Source: a virus. From it: 64,000 nt of DNA. Each line of letters opens with the position of its first letter. Position 1 is the first letter of the stretch. The position numbers and the translations under genes are program-made. Below, piece after piece: positions 3,864-45,219 of this stretch. The notes below the pieces were generated by a model. The model was not told the origin of the DNA. It was given only the letters and a program-made list of their open reading frames with translations, and made no database searches. The stretch lies in the IMG/VR virus record IMGVR_UViG_3300032241_002567, positions 64,001-128,000 of that record; one strand, 5' to 3'.

Positions 3864-4688
3864 TTAAATTATTATTTGTATCTGATTTGTATAAAATACC
3901 GCAATAATATCTGGTATTTTAACATCTATATCAGCAAATCTATCAATTTTACCAGTGATATAAAAGGCATCATATCCATCTGATATTAATTTTAGACGTA
4001 AATTATTAAAATAATTTACGTCTTTTGCATGTGAAATTCTGATTGCATCCCATTTATTGCTAGAAATTATATAAGGATTTTTATAAGTTAATTTTGCTGA
4101 AATTATTTTATTTCCGAAATACTGTGTATAATCTTTATCTTTTGTAAACCAAATACCCAATTTAGAAGTTGGTTTTGTTGTATCATTTGGTTCTTTAAAT
4201 TCTGAGAATTCGGCATCAGTTCCATGATACCAAACTTCTTCATTTAATTCTTCATTTAAAATTTGAAGTTTATCAGTTGTATCAAATAATTTATCTAATA
4301 ATTTTATTTTATCATTAACATCAAAAAATGTGGTTATATTATCTGTTAAAGTTTCTGTATTATTATTTTTAAAAAAATATAAATCATTATAATTTTTAAC
4401 ACCATTATAATTATACCCATCATAATATTTATTATTATTTTTAATAAAAGAATGATATGGAGCCATTAGCATTTCTGATTCAGGAAATAACCATTTTATA
4501 AAAATTGTTACATCATTACAATATCCGTCTATTAAAGATATTCTTGTTATTTTTAAATTTTTTTCGTAGGCTGCATATCTATAAGCATTATTAAGAAATA
4601 TTTGAAAATCTTTATTTGTTGGTAAATTTTTAAGTATTTTACTAATTTTATTATTAGAGAAATTTTCAAATAATTTTAGGTATTTCAT
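3864..4688 (-). CDS. Putative virion-packaged ADP-ribosyltransferase-like protein (ART-PolyVal-type C-terminal domain)
   Basis: N-terminal tag MKYLKLFENF; linker ILNEELNEE; then WYHGT..F..F, GIWFT, KNPY and GYDA motifs. Confidence 0.6.
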   Translation of the reverse strand: MKYLKLFENFSNNKISKILKNLPTNKDFQIFLNNAYRYAAYEKNLKITRISLIDGYCNDVTIFIKWLFPESEMLMAPYHSFIKNNNKYYDGYNYNGVKNYNDLYFFKNNNTETLTDNITTFFDVNDKIKLLDKLFDTTDKLQILNEELNEEVWYHGTDAEFSEFKEPNDTTKPTSKLGIWFTKDKDYTQYFGNKIISAKLTYKNPYIISSNKWDAIRISHAKDVNYFNNLRLKLISDGYDAFYITGKIDRFADIDVKIPDIIAVFYTNQIQIII

Positions 4689-4736
4689 ATTTTATATATT
4701 TATTCTAACAAATCTTATTTATTTAATATATAATAT

Positions 4737-7700
4737 ATGAATAATTTGTTATGGTTTAATTCTCAAGGAGATGCTCTCAATTTACCACCTGATCCTAATA
4801 CAGGGATTTATACAGGTACATTATTTTTTGAAGAAAATAGCTCCGATACATATAAGACGATTGGTTTATATCTTTTTGAATCAGTACCATCTGTATCTTT
4901 ACAATCTATAAATGGTGATTTAAGTACCCAAAAATTTCAATTATTTAATGAAAATCGTTTTACTATAACAGGTAATTCATTCTTCACACAAAGTGTTATA
5001 TCAATACAAGCATCTAATAATCGTCCAGATTTTTATTCAAAATGGATTTATGGAAATAATTTTGATACTATGTATCCAGTTGGTTCTTCTATTCAATTCA
5101 GCAAACCTGTTTTTGAATTTGTTAATCCTTTAGAAACTTACACGGTAACTAGTGTTCAAAAAGATGCTATAATGATTATAAGTTCAACTGATAATAAAAG
5201 TTTTACTACATTATATTCAAGTTTAACTTTTTCAAATGTTTATATAAGTGGTGTAAATACTATCGGTATTTATGATTATAGAAGAGGATTTATAGATGAA
5301 CTTTCTACTTGGAATGAGCAAAAGTTTTATAATTTAGTTTATAATGGTAAAAAACTAACAATAGTAAATTCAACAGCTAGTTCTGATACACTTATAAAAA
5401 GTAGCGATAATAATCAGATAGTAACTATTCAAAATAGCACTTTGCTTGATAGGAAGTATTGGAAATATAATATAAATGCGCTTAGTTATACACAAAGTAT
5501 AGATTTGAATGTTACATTAACTTTAACAGGTGATTTACCTTCTGTGTATAATGGTAGAATTACTTTAACTGGTAGTTCGGTTTATTTTAGTAATCCAATT
5601 CCTCAAACTATTTTTAAACCAGGAATTCAATTTACTATTGCAAATAGTCTTTATAATTCTAATGAAATTACAGTTGCTTCAATACCTAATTTTATAACAA
5701 CTAATGTTTTAACTTATTATGCAACTCAATCACAAACTATTTGGAATAATTTGATTTATCAATGTCTGCAATCTTATACATGGACAGCAACTTCAAGTAT
5801 AAATCCAGATAATAGTAATTATTGGACTAGTTCTATTACATATTTACCATCTCAAAATGCTTTAATTTATGAGGATATTTTAAATACTCAAGTACATTTA
5901 GTAAATAATGTTTTTAATTATATACAAGCTTATACACAAAGCAATGCTGTGACTATGGCATCATTTGCTCAAAATTATAGTTCTACTTTTGAGATTTTTG
6001 ATATTAATTTATACTATCAAAATAATCAGCTTAATTCAGATTTAATTTGGAGTTCGAATTATGCTCAGGTAGATTATAAAATAGGCACACAATCCATTAC
6101 TAATATAGATGTAGTTTCCGAATTTATATTTTCTACAAATGAAATTTTAACTCCACAAATTAATACTAATATTTCTGAAAATTTCAATTATTCAATAGTA
6201 ATTAGTTCAATTGATGAATTTGGAATTAGATTTAACATAAATGGTCAGATATATTCTGAAAATACTGAATGGGTTTATAATGGATTAGATGTTGATCAAA
6301 GGAAAACTATTGATTTGACACTTCGAAATTTTGTATTTAATAATTTTGCTACATTAGCATCATTAGGTGTAAATATAATTTTAGATTCTTATATCTATGA
6401 AGCAGAATTTGATTTTTATAAAGATACAATTTCATTTCAAACAATTTATCCTAATGTTCCATTTAATGTATCTGTAAAATTAGGTTCGTTAGCTAATTAT
6501 TATGTTAAAAATAAACAAATAATTTTTAATGATTTAGGAAGCTATTTAAGTATAAATATTAATAATAAAACTTATGGACAAGTTGTAACTTCAGCAACTT
6601 CAAGTTATTTTAGTCCTGATATAGCAACATCGTTAACAAAATGGGTTTCTAACAACTATTCTACTTTAAGAGGTTATGGTATAATTGTTTCTAATATAAG
6701 AAATATTTTATACTTAAATACGGTAGATGCTACAACAATATTAAATTTAAATATAACAACTAATAAATCTTCAACGCCTGGTATAAGTCAATGGGTAATA
6801 AAAGATTTTACACCCGGTAATTTTGGAATTTTAATTGCTGGTAATGAAGTTGTATTAGCAGCAACAAGTAGTCAAAGTTTTGAATTTTCTAATTTTGCCA
6901 CTGGCATGGTAATGTCAGTAAACAATACTCCATTTCCTTATAATAATCAAGAATATGGTCTTATATATGTAGATACTAATCAAGTTGGATTGAGCTATCA
7001 AGGTCCATTTTTTGCAGAAACTTTAAATGAATGTACTCTTTCGTCCTTTACAACTTTAGCTTTTTCACCTTTATGGTATGACGTTGAAACATGCCCTCCA
7101 GCTATATCTATTACAGGAAGTTCTGGTGCATATGACACTAATATGTATGGTAATGGGTTTCAAATAAATTATATTTTCACAAACAGTTATGATGTTTTAA
7201 CTTATGATTCTCAAAATTCAAATGTTAAAGATTTAATTTATTTGAATCAATATGATTCAATTTATATTGGAGGTGAAAATATAACAGTAGTAACAGCTGA
7301 TACATTATCTTACATTACTACTATTAATTTACCAACGTCTGGTATTATAAGATTAATTTATAATAGTTTTAACAATTATATTTATGCATTAACTAATACA
7401 AATATTTTAATTATTGATCCAGCTTCTAATTCTTATGTAACTACTATTAACATAATTCCATTTGATATTTTAGTTAATCAGTCAAATGGTGATGTTTACA
7501 TCACCGACGGTAGTAGTAGTTTGTCTATTTTTTATTCAAATAACTTTACACCAACGGCAAATGTTATAATAACATTATCCGGAGCAGGCAAAATTGAATA
7601 TAATATAGTTGACGAGTTTATTTATGTAATAGGAAATTCTTTATATCAAATTAATGCAACCTTTAGAACACTAGAGTCAACTATTGCGATATTAAATCCA

Positions 7701-10541
7701 GATAATAATTATATATTTACAGAACCAGAATATGGTTCAGTTTATATATGGGGTAATTTATCTGCTGGAATTAGTAATACACTTTTTAAATATTTGAATG
7801 GTATAATAACAAGTATTTCATTAACAAATTCAGGTAATAATAAATTAATTTATGATAATTTTACAGGAGATTTATTTTTGTCACAACAAACAGGAAATAA
7901 ATTTAGTAGAATAACTTCAAATGATGTAATAGTTTACACACAAGTTATAGATTATGGTGATTTTGTAATTAGTCAATTTGATGGAGATATTTATTTAATA
8001 TCAAATAGTGGATGTTTATATGTTATTGATTCTAATACTGGTTTTGTAAAGTATAATAATACAACTTCGCCATTTGGTGTAGTTTCATATAAATTAATAT
8101 ATGATCCTGAAAGGGAAAGTATAATTATAGGACAGTATTCTGGTAATTTAATGGAAATTCAAGTTGAATTAAATTCTTCTATAACTTTAGCTTTTAGTCA
8201 TTCAACTGTTCAATCTATAAATGATGGCTATTACGGCACATTAAATTCATCTTATGAGCCTATTAATGATATATGGCTGAAAACTAGACAATATTTAAGA
8301 GATCCAAGATATAATTATAGCAATTCGGGTGAATTACCAGCACAATTTGTTTATAAATTTATTGATGACCAAACTCCACAAATTTTTATGTATGACGTTT
8401 CGGGAAATCAATTATTAACAGGAACTTCATATTCTTATATTGGTCCTAAACCATTAGAAAATGCTGTTCTAAATTCCTCGCCAAATATGGATTTATCTTT
8501 AGTTAGCGATCCGACAGCTCAACAAACTATTTTCTCAGAAATTAAATATACATTAGATTATTTGGATTCATCAACAGATATTTCTTTATTACCAACTCCA
8601 TTAGAATTGTTTTTAGGTTATAATAATATAAATGAAGGTTATGATACAACTACATTAAAAATGTATATGAGATGGGATGTTTCTTTAACGATAAATTATA
8701 ACAGTATTTTATCCAATGACATCACATTTACAGATAAGGGAACTTCTTCAACATATCCAAATGGTTACGGTTACATTACATTCGATATAAATTCAACTGA
8801 ATCATTTTTATATAAAAGCGATGGAAGTGTTACAGGTTTACAAGCTGGGCAAAGTATTCAATTAAGTGTTACAGATGTAACTAATTTAAATAATAAATAT
8901 TTGTCTATGAATAATGGACAACAATTTATTATTGATTCAATTTCTAATAACCAAATAGTTGTAGAATATATTATAAATAGTTATGGTTATAAGTCATATT
9001 TAACTGATGAAAATACAATTATAACAAATTATCCACAATCAGGTGGTGAAACTTATTTACAAGTAACTTTTACAACAATAGATAGAGAAGTTGCTTCTAT
9101 GAAATTATATGGACAAACAGAAATAGAAGATGTAAGATATGCTATTGAATTATATAATTCCGGAGGACATGTTATAAATCCAGAGGATGCTTTTATTTTT
9201 AAAACTTATGATATAAATGAAGGTGGTGTTGATTGGAGATTTCTTAATAAGAAAAGAAAAGAAATGTTAATTGTTAGAAATCAAATATTTCCTTATGTTG
9301 GTTCTTATAGAGCTATAATAAATGCAATAAATTATTTTGGTTACAATGATTTAGTTTTAAATGAATACTATAGAAATATAAATATTAATTCTCCTAATTT
9401 TTATAAATTATTTAAGGTACAAATACCTGATATTTTCCAAAATAATACAGGTTTCACAGTTATGGATTATATAGCAGATACTATGCCTAATCCAAATTTT
9501 GAAGAAACTAATCTATTAAATTTAACCTTTCCTATTACAGATTTTTACGGTAATTGGATTCTTTTATATTCATTAGACGAAATAATAATTAAATTACAAG
9601 GTTTGAAAAATTGGTTAGAAGCACACGTTATACCAATTCAATTTAGAATTTTAGATATTTCAGGAGATGCTCATTTTCCAGCTCCGGTTTCAATAATTCA
9701 TAAACCATTTTCTAAAAAGACATTTAAAGTTTCACAAACTATGACTCCAATTGATTTTGATATGAATGAAGCATATTTGATGCCAGTAAATAGTGGTTCA
9801 ACTGTTTACAATGCTGTGATTGATTTTAAGTGTTCTAAAACTCAATTAGATAAAGTCCCAAACTACTTTACTATTTTAATAAGAACTTATAAAACATATA
9901 AAGAATGGGATCCATTTATCATCTATAGTATAGGAGACGAAGTTACATATTACGGAAAAATTTATGAATCTGCTATAAATAATAATAAATTAAATAATCC
10001 TACACAATACGATTATGTAAATCAATGGTATGCAACTACTGAATATTTTAATGGACAGTTAGTTAATTATAATAATCATATATATGAATATTTAGGAACA
10101 GAATCTTCTTTTATAGTTTTTGCAACACAATCTTCTTCCGGAACATATTCAATACCAACACCTTATCAAAGTTCATTATGGTTAGATATAAGTCAATGGA
10201 TTCAACAGGATTTAGTTCCAGTTCAAACTATATTTGAATATAGAAATGTGGATATTAATTCTCTAACTTATTCAGAGTCAACTTATAAACCTTTATTTTA
10301 TCCTAATAATCCACCAGAATTGTTAACTATACAAGTTTCTAAACCTTTCAATTTTAGTGTTGATTCTAATATAGATCCATTTATTACAATAGAAGTAACA
10401 TCAGATAATGGTTATGGATTAACCTATACTTATAAAAAGAATTATGAAATTAGAGGTCTAAACGATTTATCTTCAGGAATACAACCAACTGATTCAATAG
10501 GGCCTTTTACACCAATTAATCCAATCACTAATCATATATAA
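4737..10541 (+). CDS. Large baseplate/tail structural protein (1934 aa)
   Basis: Beta-rich; YVTN-like propeller repeats (YNSFNNYIYA, YDNFTGDLFL, YDPERESIII); CBM-like W...Y..G..V.Y motifs; baseplate-wedge-like GSYRAIINAINYFGY; late promoter at 4724-4732. Confidence 0.65.
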   Translation: MNNLLWFNSQGDALNLPPDPNTGIYTGTLFFEENSSDTYKTIGLYLFESVPSVSLQSINGDLSTQKFQLFNENRFTITGNSFFTQSVISIQASNNRPDFYSKWIYGNNFDTMYPVGSSIQFSKPVFEFVNPLETYTVTSVQKDAIMIISSTDNKSFTTLYSSLTFSNVYISGVNTIGIYDYRRGFIDELSTWNEQKFYNLVYNGKKLTIVNSTASSDTLIKSSDNNQIVTIQNSTLLDRKYWKYNINALSYTQSIDLNVTLTLTGDLPSVYNGRITLTGSSVYFSNPIPQTIFKPGIQFTIANSLYNSNEITVASIPNFITTNVLTYYATQSQTIWNNLIYQCLQSYTWTATSSINPDNSNYWTSSITYLPSQNALIYEDILNTQVHLVNNVFNYIQAYTQSNAVTMASFAQNYSSTFEIFDINLYYQNNQLNSDLIWSSNYAQVDYKIGTQSITNIDVVSEFIFSTNEILTPQINTNISENFNYSIVISSIDEFGIRFNINGQIYSENTEWVYNGLDVDQRKTIDLTLRNFVFNNFATLASLGVNIILDSYIYEAEFDFYKDTISFQTIYPNVPFNVSVKLGSLANYYVKNKQIIFNDLGSYLSININNKTYGQVVTSATSSYFSPDIATSLTKWVSNNYSTLRGYGIIVSNIRNILYLNTVDATTILNLNITTNKSSTPGISQWVIKDFTPGNFGILIAGNEVVLAATSSQSFEFSNFATGMVMSVNNTPFPYNNQEYGLIYVDTNQVGLSYQGPFFAETLNECTLSSFTTLAFSPLWYDVETCPPAISITGSSGAYDTNMYGNGFQINYIFTNSYDVLTYDSQNSNVKDLIYLNQYDSIYIGGENITVVTADTLSYITTINLPTSGIIRLIYNSFNNYIYALTNTNILIIDPASNSYVTTINIIPFDILVNQSNGDVYITDGSSSLSIFYSNNFTPTANVIITLSGAGKIEYNIVDEFIYVIGNSLYQINATFRTLESTIAILNPDNNYIFTEPEYGSVYIWGNLSAGISNTLFKYLNGIITSISLTNSGNNKLIYDNFTGDLFLSQQTGNKFSRITSNDVIVYTQVIDYGDFVISQFDGDIYLISNSGCLYVIDSNTGFVKYNNTTSPFGVVSYKLIYDPERESIIIGQYSGNLMEIQVELNSSITLAFSHSTVQSINDGYYGTLNSSYEPINDIWLKTRQYLRDPRYNYSNSGELPAQFVYKFIDDQTPQIFMYDVSGNQLLTGTSYSYIGPKPLENAVLNSSPNMDLSLVSDPTAQQTIFSEIKYTLDYLDSSTDISLLPTPLELFLGYNNINEGYDTTTLKMYMRWDVSLTINYNSILSNDITFTDKGTSSTYPNGYGYITFDINSTESFLYKSDGSVTGLQAGQSIQLSVTDVTNLNNKYLSMNNGQQFIIDSISNNQIVVEYIINSYGYKSYLTDENTIITNYPQSGGETYLQVTFTTIDREVASMKLYGQTEIEDVRYAIELYNSGGHVINPEDAFIFKTYDINEGGVDWRFLNKKRKEMLIVRNQIFPYVGSYRAIINAINYFGYNDLVLNEYYRNININSPNFYKLFKVQIPDIFQNNTGFTVMDYIADTMPNPNFEETNLLNLTFPITDFYGNWILLYSLDEIIIKLQGLKNWLEAHVIPIQFRILDISGDAHFPAPVSIIHKPFSKKTFKVSQTMTPIDFDMNEAYLMPVNSGSTVYNAVIDFKCSKTQLDKVPNYFTILIRTYKTYKEWDPFIIYSIGDEVTYYGKIYESAINNNKLNNPTQYDYVNQWYATTEYFNGQLVNYNNHIYEYLGTESSFIVFATQSSSGTYSIPTPYQSSLWLDISQWIQQDLVPVQTIFEYRNVDINSLTYSESTYKPLFYPNNPPELLTIQVSKPFNFSVDSNIDPFITIEVTSDNGYGLTYTYKKNYEIRGLNDLSSGIQPTDSIGPFTPINPITNHI

Positions 10542-10576
10542 TTAAAAAACCTCTCAAATTGAGAGGTTTTTTAATT
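10540..10576. terminator. Bidirectional terminator between convergent genes
   Basis: aattaaaaaacctctcaa-a-ttgagaggttttttaatt, 18-bp arms. Confidence 0.8.
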
Positions 10577-11328: not shown

Positions 11329-11372
11329 ATTTTTTTTATTTTTGTATTAACAATTTATTAATTTGTTTATTT

Positions 11373-11822: not shown

Positions 11823-11866
11823 AAATTTTTATTTTTTAATTATACTTATGATTTCTGAGAAGTTTA

Positions 11867-12301: not shown

Positions 12302-12332
12302 AAAAGTTTTTATTTCTATTTATTAAGAAAGT

Positions 12333-15311: not shown

Positions 15312-15746
15312 ATGATTAAAAAATGGTATAAATATTATGTTCTAAAAGAATCTGTAAAAGAGATAGAACTTAATAAAATTTTGGATAAAATATCCAAAGG
15401 CGAAAGTTTAACCATTAGAGAAGATAATTTTTTGAATCTTTATAATCAAACACAAGACGATGATTTAAATGATTATGCTTATCTTTCAAGAAATATAGCA
15501 ATATCTAAAGTTTCTGATTATTTAGAAAAAAAGAAAAAAATCTGGTGTGATTTGAACGATAGAGATGGTAAAATTGGAGATTTAATTATTAAAGTTTATA
15601 AATCAGAATACAAATTGATACTTAGGCACGGAGAATATATGATGAGTGATAATATGTTATACAACATAACTTATAATATTAAAAAGGATGAATATTCATT
15701 AACAACACAAGATGAATATTATGAAGAAATAAATGTAAATAAATGA
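15312..15746 (+). CDS. Hypothetical late protein
   Basis: TAATATATA at 15282-15290; LNKILDKIS..G.SLT..E..FL motif. Confidence 0.7.
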   Translation: MIKKWYKYYVLKESVKEIELNKILDKISKGESLTIREDNFLNLYNQTQDDDLNDYAYLSRNIAISKVSDYLEKKKKIWCDLNDRDGKIGDLIIKVYKSEYKLILRHGEYMMSDNMLYNITYNIKKDEYSLTTQDEYYEEINVNK

Positions 15747-16009
15747 AAATAAAGAAATTCCAACAATTTTTAGAATCTATCTCTGGCACAGAACTTATAG
15801 GCTCATTAGGTCCAGGTATTGGTAGTCAAAAATTGTCTAACACAATTACATCTAATGATACATCAGTTATTGCATCTGATATAACTGGGAAAATATATAC
15901 TTTTGATGATTATAATGATTTATATGAAGAATATTTAAAAAAAGGTGGCAAACCACTCAAAGATGGATTTATAAAATCTAATTTGGAAATTATTTTAACT
16001 AAACTATAA
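15743..16009 (+). CDS. Small putative virion internal protein
   Basis: N-terminal tag MKIKKFQQFLES; ATGA-coupled to the upstream late gene. Confidence 0.6.
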   Translation: MKIKKFQQFLESISGTELIGSLGPGIGSQKLSNTITSNDTSVIASDITGKIYTFDDYNDLYEEYLKKGGKPLKDGFIKSNLEIILTKL

Positions 16010-20140: not shown

Positions 20141-20761
20141 TTATTGTTTTAGATTTTGAATCCTCTTCTTAGCCTCTTCTAATTCTTTTTTCTTTAAATC
20201 TAATTCTTTTTTAGCTTGTATCTTAAGATTAGCGGCATTAGAATTTGCATCTTTCATTTTATTTTCTTGATCTTTTATATCATTTTGTGCTGTTTGAATA
20301 TCATTTCTAGTAACTTGACTATCTCCTTGATTTTGTTGTAAATCTTTTTGTTTTTCTTCTAAATCTTTTTGTTTTTGTTGTAAAGTTTCCTCAGATTTTT
20401 TAACATTTCTTTCTTGTTCTAATTCTTCGGCATATTTAGCAAAAAGAGGATTAGATGGAGTATTAGGATCATCTTTTTGATCTGGATTTTTCCAAAGTAT
20501 TTGTCCTTTAGTTTTAGAAGTTGGGTGTTTAAGAAACTTTGCTGCTAATAATTTATTATATAAATCTTGTGCTATACCTGTTTCAGATGGTTTTTCATCA
20601 TCGATATAAGTATCGTATATTTGTTTTAATTTAGCTTTATATTTATCAAATTGCTTTTTATTCATTTCAGATTGATTAAAAAGAGTCATGTCTGCCTTTA
20701 TATCTAAAGGTACTTGCTCTTTATCTAAATCAAAATTTTCGTATGTTTTTAAATATTTCAT
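20141..20761 (-). CDS. Putative virion internal protein with a coiled coil
   Basis: Tag MKYLKTYENF; long Q/K/E coiled-coil C-terminus. Confidence 0.65.
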   Translation of the reverse strand: MKYLKTYENFDLDKEQVPLDIKADMTLFNQSEMNKKQFDKYKAKLKQIYDTYIDDEKPSETGIAQDLYNKLLAAKFLKHPTSKTKGQILWKNPDQKDDPNTPSNPLFAKYAEELEQERNVKKSEETLQQKQKDLEEKQKDLQQNQGDSQVTRNDIQTAQNDIKDQENKMKDANSNAANLKIQAKKELDLKKKELEEAKKRIQNLKQ

Positions 20762-25429: not shown

Positions 25430-25461
25430 AAAAAGCGGTTTTAAACCGCTTTTTTTATTTC
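25423..25461. terminator. Bidirectional terminator
   Basis: gaaataaaaaaagcggttt-t-aaaccgctttttttatttc, 19-bp arms including both stop codons. Confidence 0.8.
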
Positions 25462-25820
25462 TTTTTCTTCCTTGCTTTAGCTTTTTTTGCCTGTGCCCAT
25501 AATTTAGCATCCGCCTTTCTTGCTCCGCCAGCACCAGTTATAAACGAATTGACTCTTCCGGTTGCCCAAGCTTCCTGAGGTGTACCAGGACGATGTCCGG
25601 AATTCCAAGCGGCTCTTCCTTTTTTATATACTTTTTTTAGAATAGAAGAAGGTATACCACTTGCCTTTGATTTATTTGCTATCATTTTTGCGGCTTTTGA
25701 ATTTGGATTATCAACCGAACCTGATTCTGAGCCTTCTAAAATAATATCTTCTATTAAATAGAAATAATCTTTAAAATCAATATCTTCGCAAAAATTTTCA
25801 AAAGTTTTAATATTTACCAT
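25455..25820 (-). CDS. DUF5824-like protein, C-terminal half
   Basis: SGIP..ILKKVY.KG.AAW.SGHRPG..Q.AWA..RVNSF...AD..LW; tag MVNIKTFENF. Confidence 0.7.
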   Translation of the reverse strand: MVNIKTFENFCEDIDFKDYFYLIEDIILEGSESGSVDNPNSKAAKMIANKSKASGIPSSILKKVYKKGRAAWNSGHRPGTPQEAWATGRVNSFITGAGGARKADAKLWAQAKKAKARKKKK

Positions 25821-26939: not shown

Positions 26940-27209
26940 TTAATCCTCTTTTTTATCAAACATTCTTTGATAAGCTTTGGTTGCTGCGGATTTTTTAGTT
27001 TTTACTCTTTTGCCTTTACCACCTTTTCCAGAAGTATAATCAGCATCCCAGTCTTTTTTATATTCTTTTTTACCACGAAATCTATCAATTTCTTTTTTCA
27101 TAGCACCAGGATTTTTTGTCAAATATTTACCTGGTATTTTATGACCTTTATAATATTCAGATTTCTTTTTTTCAAGTAAAAATTCTTCAAAAGTAAAAAT
27201 ATTTTCCAT
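26940..27209 (-). CDS. DUF5824-like protein, N-terminal half (basic)
   Basis: IPGKY...D...KTKKS..TK.Y..MF; tag MENIFTFEEFLLE; late promoter at 27214-27222. Confidence 0.6.
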   Translation of the reverse strand: MENIFTFEEFLLEKKKSEYYKGHKIPGKYLTKNPGAMKKEIDRFRGKKEYKKDWDADYTSGKGGKGKRVKTKKSAATKAYQRMFDKKED

Positions 27210-31071: not shown

Positions 31072-31350
31072 TTATAATTCTTCTAAAGTCGTAGTTAAAC
31101 CACAAGCGGATAATTTTTCATTTATTACATACATTTTATCTTTTGAGCCTCTTTTAACATCACATTTACCTTTAAAGTGTATTAAAAAAGTGCATTGTTC
31201 CGCTTGCTGTAATTCATGTCCAGCGTATTTCATAAGACAATCTATTACATAGTCAAAACTATGCACGTCATCATTCCAAACAATGACGGCGTAAACACCA
31301 CCTATTATTTCATCTAATTCTGAGGTTTCTAATTCTTTAGTTTGAGGCAT
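31072..31350 (-). CDS. clpS: ATP-dependent Clp protease adaptor ClpS
   Basis: VIVWNDDVHSFDYVIDCL...QAEQC..LIH.KGKC.VK.G (Bacteroidota-type). Confidence 0.9.
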   Translation of the reverse strand: MPQTKELETSELDEIIGGVYAVIVWNDDVHSFDYVIDCLMKYAGHELQQAEQCTFLIHFKGKCDVKRGSKDKMYVINEKLSACGLTTTLEEL

Positions 31351-31762
31351 TTTCTAATTTTTTAATTTCTTCGTTTAATAAATTAGCAAGTTCGTAATTT
31401 TCTTTATTAATAGCATTTTGCATTTCTTTTTCTAAATCTTTTTTGGATTTATTTTTATTTTTGATTTTATGTTCATTTTTTATATTTAATAAAATAAAAT
31501 CACGAAATATTTCAGATTCGTAAGATTTTACAAAACTAATTTGATTACCTTCAACATTTTGATAAAACCATATTTTTTTAGATATAGGGTCATTATTAAA
31601 AATTGTAATGGTTATTACTTGATCTTTATATTTTTCTCCTCCTATACTAGTATAGAATCCATTAGGTGTATAAATATTAATTTTATCACCACTATAAAGT
31701 TTTTTCAAATTTTTAGTCTTTCTTATTTCTTTCAAAGAAAAAATTTTTTTTAAAAATTTCAT
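31337..31762 (-). CDS. Protein with a C-terminal UVR (UvrB/UvrC) motif
   Basis: LEKEMQNAINKENYELANLLNEEIKKLE. Confidence 0.7.
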   Translation of the reverse strand: MKFLKKIFSLKEIRKTKNLKKLYSGDKINIYTPNGFYTSIGGEKYKDQVITITIFNNDPISKKIWFYQNVEGNQISFVKSYESEIFRDFILLNIKNEHKIKNKNKSKKDLEKEMQNAINKENYELANLLNEEIKKLENASN

Positions 31763-33389: not shown

Positions 33390-33905
33390 ATGAAACATAT
33401 TAGAAAATTTGAAGGTTTTAGAAACAATAAACCAGAAGCTCAAGAAACAGTAAATGAAACTGTATTCCAGGTTGAAAATACTTATAGAGTAAATATAATT
33501 GCTGACGTAGAAGCAAAACTTTTATCCGCTTATGCAAAAAAAGTTAAGCAAAACATGAATAAAGAAATTACCGATTTAATGGGCAATGCTATGTTAGCAG
33601 AAGAACTTGTTAAATGGGTTTTAATAAACGGTTTAGATGTGGAAAAAATACCAGCTTCAGCAATTATAGGCGGAGCACAGGGTCAAGGTCAGTCACAAGG
33701 TCAGTCACAAGGTCAGTCACAAGGTCAAGCACAAGTTCAGTCTCAATCACAAGATCAAGCACAAAGTCAACCCCAAGCTCAAGTTCAATCTCAACCTCAA
33801 GTTCAAGTTCAATCTCAACCTCAGGGTCAAGTGCAAACACAGAGTCAATCACAAGATATGGAAGAAGTACAATCTCAAAAAGGTAACGAAGAATTACCAG
33901 TTTAA
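33390..33905 (+). CDS. Putative virion internal protein with a Gln-rich tail
   Basis: Tag MKHIRKFEGF, then VNE; promoter at 33358-33366. Confidence 0.7.
   Translation: MKHIRKFEGFRNNKPEAQETVNETVFQVENTYRVNIIADVEAKLLSAYAKKVKQNMNKEITDLMGNAMLAEELVKWVLINGLDVEKIPASAIIGGAQGQGQSQGQSQGQSQGQAQVQSQSQDQAQSQPQAQVQSQPQVQVQSQPQGQVQTQSQSQDMEEVQSQKGNEELPV
33678..33853 (+). repeat. Gln-dipeptide low-complexity repeat (12-bp ggtcagtcacaa x3 and derivatives)
   Basis: QGQGQSQGQSQGQSQGQAQVQSQ... Confidence 0.85.
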
Positions 33906-33978
33906 TATTTGAATTTTAAATAAAAAAGTCGCTTAATTGAGCGACTTTTTTATTTAAAATTCAAATATTAAACTGGTA
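33895..33978. terminator. Perfect 39-bp-arm palindrome and bidirectional terminator extending into both flanking CDS
   Basis: taccagtttaatatttgaattttaaataaaaaagtcgct-taattg-exact reverse complement. Confidence 0.9.
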
Positions 33979-35095
33979 CATTTACTGGTACTAAAATAGT
34001 TTGTATAATTCTATCAATAATTTCATATGGATCACCATTAGAAGCAGGACGTCTATCTTCTAAATAACCTGGTGTTATAACATCTTCAATTGAAGAAGGT
34101 ATTCTAATAGACGCAGTTCTATCACCTATACCATATCTATATTCATTAATAGAACAAGTTTCATTAGCACCAGTTAAACGATGTTCATTATTTATGCCAT
34201 AAACTGCGATATGTTCGGTGATTTTAGTTCCTAATTTTTCACAAGCTTCTATAACTAACGACTTTTTATTTTTTAAATCGGTTCTCATAGTTTTAGTTGA
34301 GAAATTGACATGCATACCTGAACCATTCCAATCATTTCCTTTAATAGGCTTTGGATCTAACACTATATAATAGTTATACTTTTCAGATAATCTTTCTAAT
34401 ATATATCTCGAAACCCATAACTGGTCAGCACCTTCTTTAGCTGGCACTGGTCCAATTTGGTATTCCCATTGACCCAAAGCTACTTCAGCATTTATACCAG
34501 AAATTTTTAATTCAGCATATTCACATAATTCAGCATGTTCTTCAACAAATGCTCTACCTGCAACATTTCTGCCACCAACTGCACAATAATATGGTCCTTG
34601 TGGTCTTGCTGGTGTGGTAATTTTTTCACTGTATGGATTGTTTACTGGCCATCCTAATGGTTTATTTGTATTACAATCATAAATAAAATATTCCTGTTCC
34701 AATCCATACATAGTTTCATCATCATATTTATCTAATGTTTCAACCATTTTTGCTCTTTTATTTGTTGAGTGAGGTGTCATGTCGGTATTATATACTTCCG
34801 ACATAACGATGAAGCCATTTTCTTTAAATGGATTTTTGAATATATTAACTGGTTTAAGTAATAATTCTGATTTAGAAGTTTCTGCTTGATCTGTTGAAGA
34901 GCCATCAAAGTTCCATAAAGGAAGTGTTTCTGGATTTTTTTTCCAATCTTGAAATAATGATTTTAATGAAATTGCATCTATTTTTAGTGTATTAATATCC
35001 AATTTTTTTTCGATAATTTTTGTTTTTGAACGGATTTGTTGTGGATATGAACCATCAAGCCAAATATATTCTAAATAAATGTTTTTGTTTACCAT
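33968..35095 (-). CDS. glnII: Glutamine synthetase type II
   Basis: EYIWLDG, RSKT, WNFDGSST.QA, GPYYC, GINAEV..GQWEYQ, WNGSGMH.NFST, RLTG, YLEDRRPASN.DPY. Confidence 0.93.
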   Translation of the reverse strand: MVNKNIYLEYIWLDGSYPQQIRSKTKIIEKKLDINTLKIDAISLKSLFQDWKKNPETLPLWNFDGSSTDQAETSKSELLLKPVNIFKNPFKENGFIVMSEVYNTDMTPHSTNKRAKMVETLDKYDDETMYGLEQEYFIYDCNTNKPLGWPVNNPYSEKITTPARPQGPYYCAVGGRNVAGRAFVEEHAELCEYAELKISGINAEVALGQWEYQIGPVPAKEGADQLWVSRYILERLSEKYNYYIVLDPKPIKGNDWNGSGMHVNFSTKTMRTDLKNKKSLVIEACEKLGTKITEHIAVYGINNEHRLTGANETCSINEYRYGIGDRTASIRIPSSIEDVITPGYLEDRRPASNGDPYEIIDRIIQTILVPVNVPV

Positions 35096-36119: not shown

Positions 36120-36149
36120 TATTTATATATTAAATAAAAATCCATTACT

Positions 36150-37671: not shown

Positions 37672-37726
37672 AGAAAATTTATATTTAAATCAGAAGAAGT
37701 TTAAAAAATATTATATATAATAGTAT

Positions 37727-38548: not shown

Positions 38549-38615
38549 AAAAAACTGCAAAAACAGACTTTTGAAACGTAATATATACTTTAAACTATAA
38601 AAAATATTTTTAATT

Positions 38616-39896: not shown

Positions 39897-39914
39897 ATTT
39901 AGTTTGATAATATT

Positions 39915-39949
39915 AAAATAAAAGCTCCATATTTTGGGGCTTTTATTTT
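39915..39949. terminator. Intrinsic terminator
   Basis: aaaataaaagctcca-tattt-tggggcttttatttt. Confidence 0.7.
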
Positions 39950-39970
39950 TAATATATAAAATAAAAAATT

Positions 39971-40567
39971 ATGATACATCTTAAAGATTTTAATTCTTAT
40001 GAAAATATAAGTGAAAATCTAAAATATCATATAGATAATGATTTATCTATTCTGGAAAATGTTTTTAGACCTGGTTCTGATTCATTTTTTTCTTTACTAA
40101 AAGAAGCAAGAGATTTATATGAAAATGGTTATGTTTCTTTTTCTGATTTAGATAAAGAATTATTTGAAACAACAGATATTGGTAAATTTGCTGAATTTGA
40201 AGGCAAATTAGTAGCGCTTGATTTCCCTTTCGAAAATGATGCCATTAAGGAAGAAGTTGAAGGAATTAATGAAAAGGCTAAATCTAAAAAAAGTCATCCA
40301 CAATTAAATCACCCAACTAGAAGTTCAGGTCCAAAAAAATACCAAGTCTATGTTAAAAATCCTAAAACTGGTAATATTAAGAAAATTAATTTTGGTGATT
40401 TAAAGGGTGGATTAACAACTAAAATTAATAATCCTGCTGCAAGAAAATCATTTGTAGCTAGACATAAATGTAGCACTAAAAAGGATAAAATGACGGCGGG
40501 GTTTTGGAGCTGTAGGATCCCGCGGTATAAAAATTTATATTCAGGCTCTTACAGCGGGTTTTGGTAG
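39971..40567 (+). CDS. Putative virion internal protein; acidic N-domain and basic C-domain
   Basis: Tag-like MIHLKDFNSYENISE; an INE site separates the domains; C-domain YVKNPKTGNIKKINFGD...ARKSF.ARH.C...AGFWSC. Confidence 0.7.
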   Translation: MIHLKDFNSYENISENLKYHIDNDLSILENVFRPGSDSFFSLLKEARDLYENGYVSFSDLDKELFETTDIGKFAEFEGKLVALDFPFENDAIKEEVEGINEKAKSKKSHPQLNHPTRSSGPKKYQVYVKNPKTGNIKKINFGDLKGGLTTKINNPAARKSFVARHKCSTKKDKMTAGFWSCRIPRYKNLYSGSYSGFW

Positions 40568-40590
40568 AGAAGGGAGGGTAAAACATTTAA

Positions 40591-41040
40591 TATTTTGAGA
40601 TAATAAAAGATTATACATTTCAAAAAGTATATAAATTTGAGTTAGATGATATTGATTATATCAGTATATTTGAGGGCAAAGATGATATTTGGTTTTTTGA
40701 ATATAAATTATATAACGGCTCATATATGGAAGTAAATAAAAATCCATATAAAATATTATCTTCTGTAGTAAATATTGTTAAAGACTTTATTAATAAAAAC
40801 AATCCTAATGTTATTATAATGAAACCTAAACTGGCATCAGGTGAAATTTTTATTGAAGGTGAATTAAATAAAAGAGGTAGAACATTTCTACAACTTTATA
40901 AACATTTTACAGATTTAAAATATTGCATTTTACAAAGTTCGGAATTACGACAAACCGTATTGTTTTTATATAAAAGCGATTTTAATATAAATGATTTAAT
41001 AAAGTCGAATTTCGAATCCTTTTCGAGATTAAAATATTAA
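40591..41040 (+). CDS. Hypothetical protein with a damaged 5' end (frame open from 40591, first ATG at 40726)
   Basis: 45 in-frame sense codons precede the ATG (YFEIIKDYTFQKVYKFELDD...); out-of-frame KHL immediately upstream. Confidence 0.5.
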   Translation, partial: YFEIIKDYTFQKVYKFELDDIDYISIFEGKDDIWFFEYKLYNGSYMEVNKNPYKILSSVVNIVKDFINKNNPNVIIMKPKLASGEIFIEGELNKRGRTFLQLYKHFTDLKYCILQSSELRQTVLFLYKSDFNINDLIKSNFESFSRLKY

Positions 41041-41072
41041 AATTTAATATATACTAAAAATAATTTATAAAA

Positions 41073-41462
41073 ATGAAATTAAAAAATTTTTTACAATTTA
41101 ACGAAAACATGGATATGGATCATGAGATGCATCGTAATGACGAAAATACTCATTACATGTTTTTTGAAAATCTCAGAACTATCAAAAGATTAGTTGATGA
41201 GCTATTAACCTTAGACGAAACAGAAGTAGATGAAATATTAGAAAGCGGACATGACTGGGCTGCTGATCATATTGCAGTTGCTAAGGTAGATATAGAACAA
41301 GTTTTTGACTTCTTAGTAAATAACACAGAAGAAGACATGGATTTTGAACATGAAGAAGATATGGATAATATGATGCATGAAACACCAGAAGAAACTGATA
41401 TGGAAGACATGGAGGATTATTCATCAGATGGAGAAGAATACGGAGAAGATGAAGAAGAATAA
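41073..41462 (+). CDS. Acidic putative virion internal protein
   Basis: Tag MKLKNFLQFNE; YMFFENL..IK...GHDWA.DHI; promoter at 41045-41053. Confidence 0.7.
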   Translation: MKLKNFLQFNENMDMDHEMHRNDENTHYMFFENLRTIKRLVDELLTLDETEVDEILESGHDWAADHIAVAKVDIEQVFDFLVNNTEEDMDFEHEEDMDNMMHETPEETDMEDMEDYSSDGEEYGEDEEE

Positions 41463-41727
41463 TTATAAATTTCCATTTGAAGAAAAAATTGAAGAAGGAT
41501 TTTATATTCGCAAATTTGATTCCGAAACTGATAAAGAAAATTTTGTATGGCATCGTGATAAAGAAGATAGAATTATAAAATGCACACATGAAACTAATTG
41601 GATGTTTCAAATAGATAATGAACTACCAATAAAATTTGATAAAACTATTTTTATAGAAAAAATGGTTTGGCATCGAGTGATCAAGGGAGATGGAGATTTA
41701 CAACTTAAAATAAAAAAGCTAATTTAA
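41449..41727 (+). CDS. Small cupin-like protein (start probably 41449)
   Basis: VWHRD.E.R...W.FQ.DN..P...I.I....WHRVIKG.G.L. Confidence 0.6.
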   Translation: MKKNNYKFPFEEKIEEGFYIRKFDSETDKENFVWHRDKEDRIIKCTHETNWMFQIDNELPIKFDKTIFIEKMVWHRVIKGDGDLQLKIKKLI

Positions 41728-41795
41728 TAAATTGGCTTTTTTATTTAAACCTCAATATAATAATTTTATATAAACCAAAAAATAATTTAGTAATA

Positions 41796-42167
41796 ATGAA
41801 TTATCTCCACAACAAAGACTTATATATTGAAATTGTAGTAAGCAAAGCACAAGGAAAACTTACAAAAAATGCTAAATTAATGTTAGAGTTATTAGCCAAA
41901 AAAACTATTAAAAAAATGCGTTATTGGTCTAATGACGACAAAATGGATTGTTATCAAGGCGGACTTTTAGATATGTTTGCTAATTGGTATAACTTCAATG
42001 AAGAAAAATCCGATGGCAACGCATTCGCATATTTCACAGAAATATTCAAGAGAGGTCTTGCTAAATCTTTCAATGAATTATACAAAAAGAAAGGTGACCC
42101 AACACACTCAGTTAAATTGATTAGTTTAGAAGGGTCCAATGACGGACAAGGATTACACTCAATATAA
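41796..42167 (+). CDS. Late-transcription sigma factor (T4 gp55-like)
   Basis: YLHNKDL...NFNEEKS.GNAFAYFTEI matches the gp55 region-2 pattern; no region 4. Confidence 0.8.
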   Translation: MNYLHNKDLYIEIVVSKAQGKLTKNAKLMLELLAKKTIKKMRYWSNDDKMDCYQGGLLDMFANWYNFNEEKSDGNAFAYFTEIFKRGLAKSFNELYKKKGDPTHSVKLISLEGSNDGQGLHSI

Positions 42168-42216
42168 GATTAATTTTATTGCTAAAACTCTTTTTAATTT
42201 TTTCTATATATAGTAT

Positions 42217-44070
42217 ATGATAAAAGAATTAGAAGTAGTTATTAATGGACATAGGACTAATTATGACTATTATAAAAAATTGGGGTATGACATCAATTAT
42301 AGAAAGCCCTGTTTAATTAAGGTAAAAGATTTATTACCTGGAAGTGTAATAAAAATTACATGCATTTGTGATAACTGCGGCGCAGAAAACAAAAATGTTT
42401 TCAAAGATTATTATCTTTATACTGAAGGATTAACAAAAGAATATCTTTGTAATAAATGTAATAAACAAAAGGCAAAAGAAACATGTATAAAAAAATATGG
42501 TGTTGAAAATCCTATGAAATCGACTTTAATTAAAGATAAATTGAAACAATCTTTAATTGATAAATATGGAGTAGATCATTATTCGAAAACCGAAGAATAT
42601 AAATTAAAATTTAAAGAAACAAATTTAAAGAAATTTGGAACTGAAACTCCTTTACAAAATTCAGAAATAAAAGAAAAAATAAAGCAAACTAATTTAGATA
42701 GATATGGAGTGGAATATCCACAACAATCAGAAGAGATAAGAAAAAAATCTGATGAAACTAATTTAGAAAAGTGGGGATTCAAAAAATATTCTCAAACACA
42801 GGAGTGTAAAAATAAAATTATCAAAAATCAATTTCAAAAATGGGGCACTTACTATTCCAATACTGATGAATACAAACAAAAACTCAAACAAACAAACTTA
42901 GAAAAATGGGGATTTGAATATTATTCACAAACTTCGGAATATAAGGAAAAAAATAAAAAAACTAGCTTAGAAAGGTGGGGAGTTGAGCATTACTCAAAAA
43001 CCGATGAATTTAAAGATTTTGTTAAAATTAAAAGAGAATCTTTAACTAAATTAAGATATGAAAATTTGATTGGTAATGAATATAGTATAATCTCTTATGA
43101 GAATAGATTATTTTCACTTTTTCATAAAAAGTGCGAAAGAGAATCTCAAATAAACCGCGATGCTTTATATGCAAGATTAAATTTAGAAATTTGTCTATGC
43201 ACGGAGTGTTATCCTATTGATATTCAACAATCTTTTATGGAAATTGAAATGCAAGACTTTTTAAATAATTTAAATTTAACTTATGAAGTTAAAAATAAAA
43301 AAATTTTAAATGGTTTGGAATTAGATATTTATTTTCCTGAATATAATTTGGCCATTGAAATGAATGGAACCTATTGGCATTCGGAAATTTATGTTGATTC
43401 AGAGTATCATTTAAATAAAACTTTGCTTTGCAAAGAGAAGGGAATACAACTTTTGCATATCTGGGAAGATGATTGGAAATATAAAAGAAGCATAATCAAA
43501 TCAATCATATTAAATAAATTAGGTTTAATTAAATCCAAAATTTTCGCAAGAAAATGCCAAATTAAACTTGTCGAATCTAAACAAGCAAGAGAGTTTTTAG
43601 ACATTAACCATATTCAAGGATTTTCACCCTCACAAATAAAATTAGGTTTATTCTATGAGAATAAACTGGTAAGTTTAATGACATTTGGTTGGCGATATAC
43701 TAATGGTAAAAAAGAATATGAGTTAATAAGATTTTGTAATAAATTAAATTTAAATGTTATTGGTGCTGCTTCTAAATTATTTTCGTATTTTCTGAAGAAT
43801 AATCAAATAAATGAAATTATATCTTATGCCGATATTTCATTATTTAATGGTGCTATATATAAAAAGTTAGGTTTTGAAAAGATACACTTATCAGAACCGA
43901 ATTATTTTTGGGTAATAAGTGGTGTTAGAAAACACAGATTTAACTATAATAAGAAAAGATTAATAAAAGAAGGTTTTGATTCAAATAAAACTGAAGTTGA
44001 GATAATGCATGAGCGTGGTTATTATCGTGTTTTTTCTTGTGGTCAAGAAAAATGGATATATAAAATCTAA
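42217..44070 (+). CDS. Putative homing endonuclease (Zn ribbon, T.LEK[YW]G repeats, PD-(D/E)XK/Vsr-like and Hef-like domains)
   Basis: CDNC/CNKC; about 8 KYGV/KWG repeats; ELDIY.PE..LAIE.NG.YWH; IWEDDW; ARKC; ELIRFC. Confidence 0.8.
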   Translation: MIKELEVVINGHRTNYDYYKKLGYDINYRKPCLIKVKDLLPGSVIKITCICDNCGAENKNVFKDYYLYTEGLTKEYLCNKCNKQKAKETCIKKYGVENPMKSTLIKDKLKQSLIDKYGVDHYSKTEEYKLKFKETNLKKFGTETPLQNSEIKEKIKQTNLDRYGVEYPQQSEEIRKKSDETNLEKWGFKKYSQTQECKNKIIKNQFQKWGTYYSNTDEYKQKLKQTNLEKWGFEYYSQTSEYKEKNKKTSLERWGVEHYSKTDEFKDFVKIKRESLTKLRYENLIGNEYSIISYENRLFSLFHKKCERESQINRDALYARLNLEICLCTECYPIDIQQSFMEIEMQDFLNNLNLTYEVKNKKILNGLELDIYFPEYNLAIEMNGTYWHSEIYVDSEYHLNKTLLCKEKGIQLLHIWEDDWKYKRSIIKSIILNKLGLIKSKIFARKCQIKLVESKQAREFLDINHIQGFSPSQIKLGLFYENKLVSLMTFGWRYTNGKKEYELIRFCNKLNLNVIGAASKLFSYFLKNNQINEIISYADISLFNGAIYKKLGFEKIHLSEPNYFWVISGVRKHRFNYNKKRLIKEGFDSNKTEVEIMHERGYYRVFSCGQEKWIYKI

Positions 44071-44081
44071 ATATAGTAAAT

Positions 44082-44540
44082 ATGAAAACTTGGGAATTGA
44101 TAAGAGATTTTGATATTAAAGACTTCAAATATGAGAAATCTGATGATAAAATTTTAATTTATCCTGGTGAAAAATATATTGAATTAATTAATAAATTTAA
44201 TAATGAAGAAAATTTAAATATATCTATTGATTTTTTTACTATTTTTGTAAAGGATAATATTTTATGTGATTTTGAAAAAGGAATACATTTTATATTAAAA
44301 CGATTCTTAACATATAAGTTATATAAATTGGTTATAGAAAATGAAAAATATTTGATTATAAATCAAAATATTTTTTCTTATCCTACTATGCGGGAATTAC
44401 ATTCTCATTATGAATGCTCTGAAAGCGAAGATATTAAAAGCATTTATACTCAAAATTTTGTATTATATTACATAGATTTAGGTGATAATCAAATAGAAAT
44501 TCTTAAAAATCAATTAAATTTATTGGAAATTAATATATAA
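44082..44540 (+). CDS. Degenerate paralog of the downstream GNAT-like protein
   Basis: DFEKGI...TYKLYKLV..NEKYL aligns with DFEYGI...GYKLYKLV..HEKWI of 44545..45219. Confidence 0.55.
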   Translation: MKTWELIRDFDIKDFKYEKSDDKILIYPGEKYIELINKFNNEENLNISIDFFTIFVKDNILCDFEKGIHFILKRFLTYKLYKLVIENEKYLIINQNIFSYPTMRELHSHYECSESEDIKSIYTQNFVLYYIDLGDNQIEILKNQLNLLEINI

Positions 44541-44544
44541 TTAT

Positions 44545-45219
44545 ATGAGATTTTTAAAATTATTTGAAGAATTCGCTATTAAAGAATTGCATACACTTAT
44601 AGATAATAATCTATCATATATTAAAATACCTGATGCTAATAAACCAATTTCAACTTCGAATAAAAAATATAATGAAATAATTAATTTAATCAAAAATTAT
44701 AATATATCTAATTTTGATTACTATAAACATGAATTTGAAGATATTGAAATAACTCCTGATAATAATTTTAAAAAATTATTATCTAATTTAAATAAATATT
44801 TATCAACGGAGGATATAATTGATGTTAATCAGAAATTTCAATGTAGCATTACTAGTATTTTTAATAATCAATTTGACTTTGAATATGGAATTCCAAAACC
44901 TATAAGGAAATTAGGTTTAGGATACAAGTTATATAAATTAGTATTATTTCATGAAAAATGGATTTTATCAGACTTTCGGGTAAGTAAACCTGCAAAAAAA
45001 ATTTGGTATCATCTTATGCTAGATAAAGATTTATTGTGTTTTACATCAAATTATTACTCAGGTGTCATACTTAAAACTATTGATAATTCGTTAATAAAAT
45101 CTATTTTAGATAAACTTAAACCTAAATATCAGGATCATAATATAGAATATATTTTTGATGATTATTTGAAAGATAAAATCATGGAAATATATGGTGATTT
45201 ATATTTTTATAAAAGATAA
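44545..45219 (+). CDS. GNAT-like acetyltransferase with a capsid-tag-like N-terminus
   Basis: Tag MRFLKLFEEFAIKE; acetyl-CoA motif IRKLGLGYKLY; SD...S..AKKIW..L; promoter at 44531-44539. Confidence 0.6.
   Translation: MRFLKLFEEFAIKELHTLIDNNLSYIKIPDANKPISTSNKKYNEIINLIKNYNISNFDYYKHEFEDIEITPDNNFKKLLSNLNKYLSTEDIIDVNQKFQCSITSIFNNQFDFEYGIPKPIRKLGLGYKLYKLVLFHEKWILSDFRVSKPAKKIWYHLMLDKDLLCFTSNYYSGVILKTIDNSLIKSILDKLKPKYQDHNIEYIFDDYLKDKIMEIYGDLYFYKR

Follow-up and report, generated by a model that had tools for sequence, protein, structure and literature searches.

The DNA stretch examined here, referred to as the window, comprises bases 64001-128000 (64,000 nucleotides) of the 143,836-bp IMG/VR contig IMGVR_UViG_3300032241_002567, and encodes ten proteins that open with short, recurrent N-terminal peptides, or tags, alongside structural genes of T4 type. 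The contig is ~26% complete (CheckV), has a GC content of ~25%, and yielded 166 open reading frames (ORFs) across its whole length. Among 50,697 GenBank phage records, DNA and protein relatives are limited to the uncultured 630-735-kb phages LR756502, LR745206, LR756504, and LR756501/3. When the tagged ADP-ribosyltransferase (ART) and the tagged isochorismatase-like protein of the window were searched against the same records by tblastn, only uncultured 630-735-kb phages, or nothing, were returned. Since the portal protein matches 2,369 T4-superfamily records and T4-type head genes could be identified, the phage is placed as a distant megaphage of the T4 superfamily.

The tags fall into two classes, termed type A and type B. 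Type A follows the consensus M-[KR]-[YH]-[LI]-K-x-[FY]-[E>N,K]-x-[FY] and runs into a somewhat acidic, unconserved stretch. All of its information content falls within residues 1-10, or 11, with position 4 (L/I) and position 7 (F/Y), each at ~99%, among the most conserved. A strict form of the pattern, [ILV][KR].[FY]E.[FY] starting at residue 4, is found at the N-terminus of 9 of the 166 contig ORFs, where ~0.03 would be expected, and occurs only once internally in ~44,000 positions. Shuffling of residues 2-16 gave a mean of 0.07 strict tags and a maximum of 2, and the motif is thus not equally frequent in shuffled AT-rich N-termini. A type-A position-specific scoring matrix (PSSM) trained only on LR756502 and applied to the contig with a cut-off of 8 bits recovered 12 of the 166 ORFs (0.02 expected), 8 of them inside the window (ORFs starting at 4688, 20761, 25820, 27209, 33390, 36119, 39971, and 44545). 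In LR756502 itself, a complete relative with 963 ORFs, there are 20 strict tags and 68 ORFs at >=10 bits, against <=0.1 expected. Strict tags number 13 in LR745206 and are absent from LR756501. Chance or AT-richness as the source of the tag was rejected on the basis of this enrichment, the shuffles, and the absence of matches in bacterial genomes described below.

An earlier, sequence-only reading of this DNA had proposed that one tag is shared by ten unrelated ORFs. All ten N-termini are present where that reading placed them, and eight fit type A, but those of 15743 and 41073 belong to the second leader class, type B. Three further ORFs that it offered as weaker copies (1756, 15312, and 23361) do not score with either the type-A or the type-B matrix. 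The first of these, ORF 1756-2364 (+), has a tag-like stretch, RFLKYILFKESF, at residues 8-19 instead of at its start, and its annotated ATG may be neither the real nor the ancestral start. The sheath, large terminase (TerL), portal, major capsid protein (MCP), and clamp loader lack the tag, as had been claimed.

Table 1. Tagged genes and other features of the window (window coordinates).
Position	Strand	Feature	Evidence or remark
3864..4688	-	Type-A tag, MKYLKLFENF; 274 aa; C-terminal ART-PolyVal ADP-ribosyltransferase domain	PF18760, 3e-09; AATATATA at -12
15743..16009	+	Type-B (T4 internal-protein-like) leader, MKIKKFQQFLES; 88 aa	Type-B PSSM 12.5 bits
16083-20063		Tail sheath	
20141..20761	-	Type-A tag, MKYLKTYENF; 206 aa; no known family	
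25455..25820	-	Type-A tag, MVNIKTFENF; 121 aa; DUF5824 domain	PF19141, 9e-14
26940..27209	-	Type-A-like tag, MENIFTFEEF then LLE; small basic protein, 89 aa	PSSM 9.9 bits
27877-31071	+	Large terminase (TerL); 1064 aa	
33390..33905	+	Type-A tag, MKHIRKFEGF; 171 aa	
35508..36119	-	Type-A tag, MKYIKLFENF; nicotinamidase/isochorismatase-like cysteine hydrolase, 203 aa	
36694-37671		gp44-like clamp loader	
39971..40567	+	Type-A-like tag, MIHLKDFNSYENISE; 198 aa; phrog_7595	PSSM 10.0 bits
41073..41462	+	Type-B (T4 internal-protein-like) leader, MKLKNFLQFNEN; 129 aa	Type-B PSSM 11.2 bits
44545..45219	+	Type-A tag, MRFLKLFEEF; GNAT-like, 224 aa	Atlas features 0.93 to viral GNAT clusters; lead level
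51022-52806	+	gp20-type portal	Portal_T4 PF07230, 6e-54
53764..55905	+	gp21-like prohead protease (residues 1 to ~210) fused to scaffold-like extension; 713 aa	phrog_207, 1.5e-30
54627..55044	+	~10 tandem 42-bp (14-aa) repeats, xIxYxEY[LI]AEN[LV]DK, with dense [LI]-A-E sites	Period 42, inside protease gene
56082..57854	+	gp23-type MCP; N-terminal propeptide motif NKWxPxLE as in gp23	PF07068, 7.5e-28

The type-B class was obtained from an unsupervised two-class mixture of residues 2-13 of the 1,011 ORFs in the whole 735-kb genome of LR756501, which lacks type A. This class contains 92 ORFs with the consensus M-I-K-K-[FY]-x-x-[FY]-[IL]-x-E (e.g., MIKTFDEFINE), and the general form of the leader is M-x-K-K-[FYW]-x-x-[FY]-[LI]-x-E. 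No comparable class appeared when the LR756501 N-termini were shuffled within each protein. Type B is also found in LR756502, where 23 ORFs score >=10 bits against 0.6 expected, and the two best matches on the contig are the window ORFs 15743 and 41073 (0.22 expected at >=10 bits).

The T4 internal proteins (IPs) IPI, IPII, and IPIII carry the capsid-targeting sequence (CTS) MKTYQEFIAE (Mullaney and Black 1996, reviewed in PMC9026906, PMC3012670, PMC8442874). In IPIII, the 10 N-terminal residues are enough to bring foreign proteins into the head; targeting depends on residues 4 and 7 and clipping on residues 8 and 10, and clipping is not required for targeting (PMC9026906, PMC8442874). No T4 sequence went into the type-B matrix, and a shift of one residue was permitted when the 265 T4 ORFs were ranked with it. 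The top five were gp61.1, ipIII, ipII, 57B, and ipI, in that order. The chance of all three IPs falling among the top five is 3e-6 (hypergeometric), or ~3e-4 if ipII and ipIII, which have identical leaders, are counted once. The top-ranked gp61.1 (NC_000866.4 18966-19130) is a 54-aa hypothetical protein encoded beside the primase gene, and starts MKTFKEFIKED.

Type A and type B are connected through orthologous proteins. Among the LR756501 orthologues of type-A proteins, three have comparable N-termini, and two of these carry type-B leaders (9.2 and 14.2 bits); one of the type-B-bearing orthologues is the counterpart of the isochorismatase-like protein of the window. In addition, removing one residue from type A gives a sequence close to one type-B subtype, MIKKFKLFES.... 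Because orthologues swap the two leaders between lineages and a subtype of B lies near A, the leaders look like interchangeable versions of one device, one of them a CTS of T4 IP type.

Beyond the tag, the proteins have little in common. With the first 12 residues removed, they show no mutual similarity (best E 0.2), and hidden paralogy among them was rejected on this result. The isochorismatase-like protein illustrates how tag and body are joined. In its 7 orthologues the tag residues M1, K5, F7, and E8 never change, whereas the linker between the tag and the first strand differs in length by up to 16 residues. An AlphaFold2 model has a mean predicted local distance difference test (pLDDT) score of 79.8, but tag residues 1-9 fall below 50, so that the tag is predicted to be unstructured and the N-terminus free. 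There is no Pfam match for this protein. The nearest PDB folds to its body are nicotinamidases and cysteine hydrolases (E ~1e-2, probability 0.99, template-modelling score 0.45-0.5), and residues D20, K90, and C172, invariant in the 7 orthologues, would correspond to the Asp-Lys-Cys catalytic triad. In a tagged NUDIX protein elsewhere on the contig, the domain starts at residue 15. The protein encoded at 33390..33905 has conserved counterparts, also tagged, in LR756502, LR745206, and many IMG/VR contigs.

Pfam searches of 77 tagged proteins from the contig and LR756502 additionally identified lysozyme, SET, HNH, GNAT, PQ-loop, and DUF6576 domains; the rest have no family. Of the cargo classes named by the sequence-only reading, ART-PolyVal and DUF5824 were borne out by domain matches, the isochorismatase-like class is suggested by its nearest folds, and the GNAT-like assignment stays at the level of a lead. 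A strong transmembrane segment is predicted in 3 of 68 tagged and 94 of 895 untagged LR756502 proteins, a difference that is not significant, and the tagged proteins appear to be mostly soluble.

A shared protein start could also be a feature of expression, i.e., an optimal sequence for initiation and early elongation on transcripts with short leaders, with no sorting role. The ATATATA core of the upstream element lies a median of 26 nt before the ATG, which makes for very short leaders, and the tag opens with MK[YH] in AT-rich codons, with A-ending codons slightly favored at some tag positions. However, the conserved tag residues are specified by varied synonymous or conservative codons (TAT/TAC, TTA/CTA/ATT/ATA, AAA/AGA/AGG, GAA/GAG, and TTT/TTC), and codon choice at tag positions across the 68 tagged LR756502 genes equals genome-wide usage. 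This indicates that selection acts on the peptide and not on an RNA or DNA element, and a conserved element of that kind behind the tag was rejected because the nucleotide sequence varies synonymously. What is conserved at positions 7, 8, and 10 is aromatic and acidic residues, not nucleotides. The proteins needed in greatest abundance (MCP, sheath, and portal) have no tag, and tags also occur on coupled genes without a promoter of their own. An origin in expression is therefore judged very unlikely.

The exact peptide also appears to belong to phages. Back-translated MKYLKLFENF gave 0 matches in 596 Gb of GTDB bacterial and archaeal genomes, AT-rich bacteria included, which likewise speaks against an expression feature. 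In AT-rich T4, no N-terminus exceeds 2.1 bits with the type-A PSSM. In IMG/VR, by contrast with GTDB, the same back-translated peptide is found in 64 stretches, and two contigs have >=14 copies each. At these loci 121 ORFs open with the strict motif, and their bodies are very different, including isochorismatase-like, SET-like, HAD-like, and P-loop proteins, LRR-like paralogue arrays, and small acidic proteins. The tag is thus specific to phages. Tandem arrays of tagged paralogues with the form MKYLKLFENF-x-SEID-x-IC-x(2)-Y-x-I-x-NYTINPDGSIDVDG and a weak LRR_4 match occur in IMGVR_UViG_3300020048_000015 and _006428, where the genes are joined by a conserved junction in which stop and start codons overlap.

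The region upstream of the tagged genes was likewise compared with that of other genes. In the 50 nt upstream of the start, the element AATATATA is present for 9 of 14 tagged ORFs, compared with 43 of 152 untagged ones (odds ratio 4.6, p = 0.012), and tagged ORFs without their own copy are coupled to a gene that has it. The start of the tagged gene at 20141..20761 overlaps the end of the upstream gene, which encodes an 867-aa protein, by 4 nt, and this overlap suggests coupled translation. The sequence-only reading had placed all tagged genes behind a late promoter. Enrichment and coupling agree with the placement, but the label "late" could not be confirmed: the core TATATA precedes 82 of the 166 genes, compared with 6% of coding windows, and looser variants of the element lie upstream of TerL, portal, protease, MCP, and clamp loader genes. 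For this reason, it is classed as a general promoter-like element of the phage.

The proximity of the element to many tagged genes, together with their frequent location in tandem paralogue arrays and variable regions, is what would be expected if the shared 5′ end were a side effect of the shuffling of cassettes, by recombination at a promoter-plus-start module that they have in common, and had no function of its own. Against this, the nucleotide sequence of the tag is not conserved. In orthologues, the amino acids of the tag are under constraint even though the neighboring linker has diverged in both length and sequence, and the tag is kept between genomes whose protein bodies differ by 30-45%. 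This is the least probable of the explanations considered. The earlier description of a portable tag of ~10 residues on unrelated proteins is thus upheld by the enrichment, the unrelated bodies, and selection at the protein level.

The window also encodes head machinery that, judged by homology, is of T4 type: a gp20 portal, a gp21 protease, a scaffold core, and a gp23 shell. This is the kind of machinery with which the T4 CTS works, in agreement with the sequence-only reading. Residues 26-136 of the protease align with residues 35-146 of T4 gp21 (hhalign E 1.6e-4), with the motifs NRNxR[VL]Y, GE[FL]xHP, and VSSR in register and the His and Ser motifs aligned. The Peptidase_S77 match is weak and falls below the Pfam cutoff, phmmer against PDB sequences returned a designed coiled coil only, and the AlphaFold2 model of the protease domain (pLDDT 41) was too poor for a fold search. 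The family assignment rests on PHROG, Pfam, and hhalign. The protein starts MKPVMIIE-8, comparable to LLIE-9 of T4 gp21.

Beyond the protease domain, the gene encodes a coiled coil, the tandem repeats, an acidic tract, and a conserved C-terminal domain. The density of [LI]-x-E in the scaffold part is 5.2 per 100 residues, compared with 1.44 in the proteome. In T4, the core is cut to small peptides at [LI]-x-E (PMC9026906), and a repeat region rich in this motif would look like a core of that type; it is from the scaffold repeats alone that the cleavage specificity of the protease can be inferred. The repeat unit YQEY[IL]AE is nearly identical to residues 4-10 of the T4 CTS (YQEFIAE). The fusion protein is presumed to be both the docking partner and the clipping enzyme for tagged proteins. 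A complex prediction for the full protease-scaffold protein with the tagged isochorismatase-like protein scored 0.00, which speaks neither for nor against binding. When the MCP propeptide was aligned with T4 gp23, the T4 LTE|AE site was not conserved, and a conserved INE at MCP residue 43 is a candidate cleavage site only. Small ORFs at genome positions 43604-48801, upstream of the window, resemble the N-arm of the MCP (blastp 1e-5 to 1e-20) and have a homologue in LR756502 at 315773-316270.

Taken together, these observations can be read as portable N-terminal address peptides of T4-CTS type, in two forms, that load proteins into the phage head; we put the probability of this reading at about one half. 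In the proposed scheme, a leader of 10-11 residues, joined through a variable linker to unrelated soluble proteins, would dock each protein on a prohead core formed by the gp21-like protease and its repeat-rich scaffold. The gp23-type shell would then close around core and cargo, the protease would probably clip the leader wherever an [LI]-x-E site exists, and the cargo would stay in the head and enter the next host with the DNA. Docking, encapsidation, clipping, and injection are all predicted steps. T4 Alt, an ADP-ribosyltransferase, is also packaged and injected (PMC9026906, PMC8442874). Type-A positions 4 and 7, which in T4 IPIII matter for targeting, are highly conserved, and one of the putative window cargo proteins is an ART. 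Head loading is considered the most economical reading. Somewhat more tentative is the wider proposal that megaphages of this lineage use two interchangeable tags of CTS type to carry roughly a tenth of the proteome into the head, with a cargo of dozens of separate enzymes (ART, NUDIX, nicotinamidase-like, SET, GNAT, HNH, and lysozyme) and small proteins.

Several points weigh against head loading. The resemblance to the T4 CTS that the sequence-only reading proposed applies to type B (two window ORFs), with its blind IP ranks of 2, 3, and 5, but not to type A, whose PSSM ranks T4 ipII and ipIII 63-64 of 265. Residue classes over positions 2-7, the targeting half, place ipII and ipIII at ranks 22-23 and ipI at rank 2. 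In view of the low type-A ranks of ipII and ipIII, the M-K-..-F7 resemblance to the T4 CTS is weak on its own, and type A is linked to T4 only indirectly, through the type-B orthologue swaps. Packaged T4 Alt is not recognized by the type-B PSSM (rank 87), and neither are other T4 core proteins. Conversely, gp61.1 and 57B rank high although the T4 record does not list them as virion proteins, so an N-terminal match alone is no proof of packaging.

The cleavage site and the composition of the cargo fit unevenly as well. A gp21-type [LI]-x-E site, named by the sequence-only reading as the place where the T4 leader is removed, is present in only some tags. It occurs as L-F-E at residues 6-8 in 3 of the 8 type-A window tags (4688, 36119, and 44545), leaving most of them without a site at E8. 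A later LLE or ISE is found in 27209 and 39971, and the type-B window leaders carry F-L-E and F-N-E. Overall, the frequency of [LI]-x-E within 30 residues is 55% versus 36%. Many tagged proteins are acidic, whereas the T4 IPs are basic. In LR756502, the tag of ~6 proteins runs straight into a hydrophobic segment, and one protein has a PQ-loop domain; a few tagged proteins look membrane-bound. Within this genome, one group with the form MKNIK.Y.DF.NEE[VI].W[KR]... (56658, 383506, 544849, and 580926) has a signal- or anchor-like hydrophobic segment after the tag, and one member has the PQ-loop. Finally, a cargo of ~9% of the proteome would be unprecedented. The indirect link between type A and T4, the IP-like starts on T4 proteins not annotated as virion components, the unprecedented cargo fraction, and the few membrane-like proteins are the reasons why the confidence is set no higher than ~0.5.

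Some of these same points would suit a recognition peptide for another destination or process, such as a different site in the virion or in assembly, a chaperone of the phage, a compartment within the cell, or regulated turnover. Conservation at the protein level and modularity are expected of any recognition peptide, not of a capsid address alone. The hydrophobic or signal-like segments, the PQ-loop protein, the starts of gp61.1 and 57B, and a tagged fraction far above any known capsid cargo set can all be counted in its favor. Turnover is brought to mind by a ClpS adaptor homologue of 92 aa (PF02617, 1.4e-16), which shares window 31072-31762 (-) with the gene immediately behind it, for a 141-aa protein that has a UVR motif at its C-terminus; the position of the ClpS homologue is conserved in LR756502 and LR745206. 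However, no N-degron (N-terminal F/Y/L/W) would be exposed unless by an unknown cut, and a ClpS N-degron function of the tag was rejected because no step exposing an N-terminal F/Y/L is evident. Moreover, no result in this lineage points to another compartment, type B matches the T4 IP leader and is exchanged with type A between orthologues, and the only role that experiments have established for such a leader within the T4 superfamily is head targeting. A different destination is accordingly regarded as unlikely, though it is the most serious competitor of head loading.

Other genes of the window are of separate interest. TerL is unusually long. Its PHROG terminase matches fall into two parts, one covering residues 50-600 and the other the C-terminus, and this split suggests an inserted element or an additional domain. 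A glutamine-synthetase-like gene (33968-35095, -) and a DUF3326 gene (48797-50065, -) are interspersed with the structural and tagged genes.

The T4 CTS and CTS-like leaders of T-even phages are already known. Literature searches with six tag strings, and searches linking huge phages with capsid targeting, returned no paper. The analysis contributes the sorting of the leaders into types A and B, the finding that a type-B matrix made without T4 data picks out the T4 IPs, the exchange of A and B leaders between orthologues, the description of a scaffold with Y[LI]AEN repeats joined to the protease, the bacterial-genome control for tag specificity, and a weakening of the "late promoter" label. 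If head loading is correct, the injected proteins of uncultured huge phages could be listed from sequence, at ~90 proteins per genome in the complete relatives. On the wider proposal of a tenth of the proteome as cargo, this would be the largest virion-delivered protein arsenal known, with members that can be read directly from the genome. It would also explain why host-modifying enzymes stand among structural genes behind a phage promoter, and it would mark the 10-residue T4 signal as an old system that is diversifying throughout the T4 superfamily. That leaders from a 735-kb phage singled out the T4 IPs in a blind ranking offers a concrete bridge to bench tests. If the tag acts otherwise, a recognition code used by about one tenth of a proteome is still undescribed.

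Compared with the T4 IP system, the megaphage tags share an N-terminal leader of ~10 residues on otherwise unrelated proteins, gp20-, gp21-, and gp23-type head machinery, a hydrophobic position 4 and an aromatic position 7 followed by an acidic residue, and, through type B in the relatives and in two window ORFs, a leader that picks out the T4 IPs in a blind ranking. They differ in that the dominant type-A tag is not similar in sequence and often lacks [LI]-x-E, and in that ~7-10% of the proteome is marked, compared with 3-4 proteins in T4. The putative cargo consists largely of enzymes and acidic proteins in place of small basic ones, protease and scaffold are fused, and the packaging of the megaphage cargo is putative.

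The ejection and inner-body propeptides of phiKZ and SPN3US, cut by gp175 and gp245, respectively, also belong to giant phages with gp21-related proteases, many head proteins, and cleavage after Glu (PMC5694885). Unlike the tags, these propeptides are mostly >100 residues long, have no shared short consensus, and are cut at [SAG]-x-E (PMC5694885).

Two further systems combine some of the same features, among them the encapsulins and the polyvalent proteins. Encapsulins load enzymes of many kinds into an HK97-fold shell by means of a short, portable cargo-loading peptide. This peptide generally sits at the C-terminus and attaches directly to the shell protein, and the system works without DNA, protease, scaffold, or delivery into another cell. 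The tags resemble this peptide as short portable peptides on enzymes, and differ in the end of the protein that carries them, in the proposed binding partner, and in the proposed delivery. The polyvalent proteins of phages and conjugative elements, reportedly described by Iyer and colleagues in 2017, are said to bear effector domains such as ART that are thought to travel with the DNA into a new host, and the window protein at 3864..4688 has an ART-PolyVal domain. Whereas polyvalent proteins fuse many domains into one giant polypeptide, each putative effector here is a separate small gene with its own tag.

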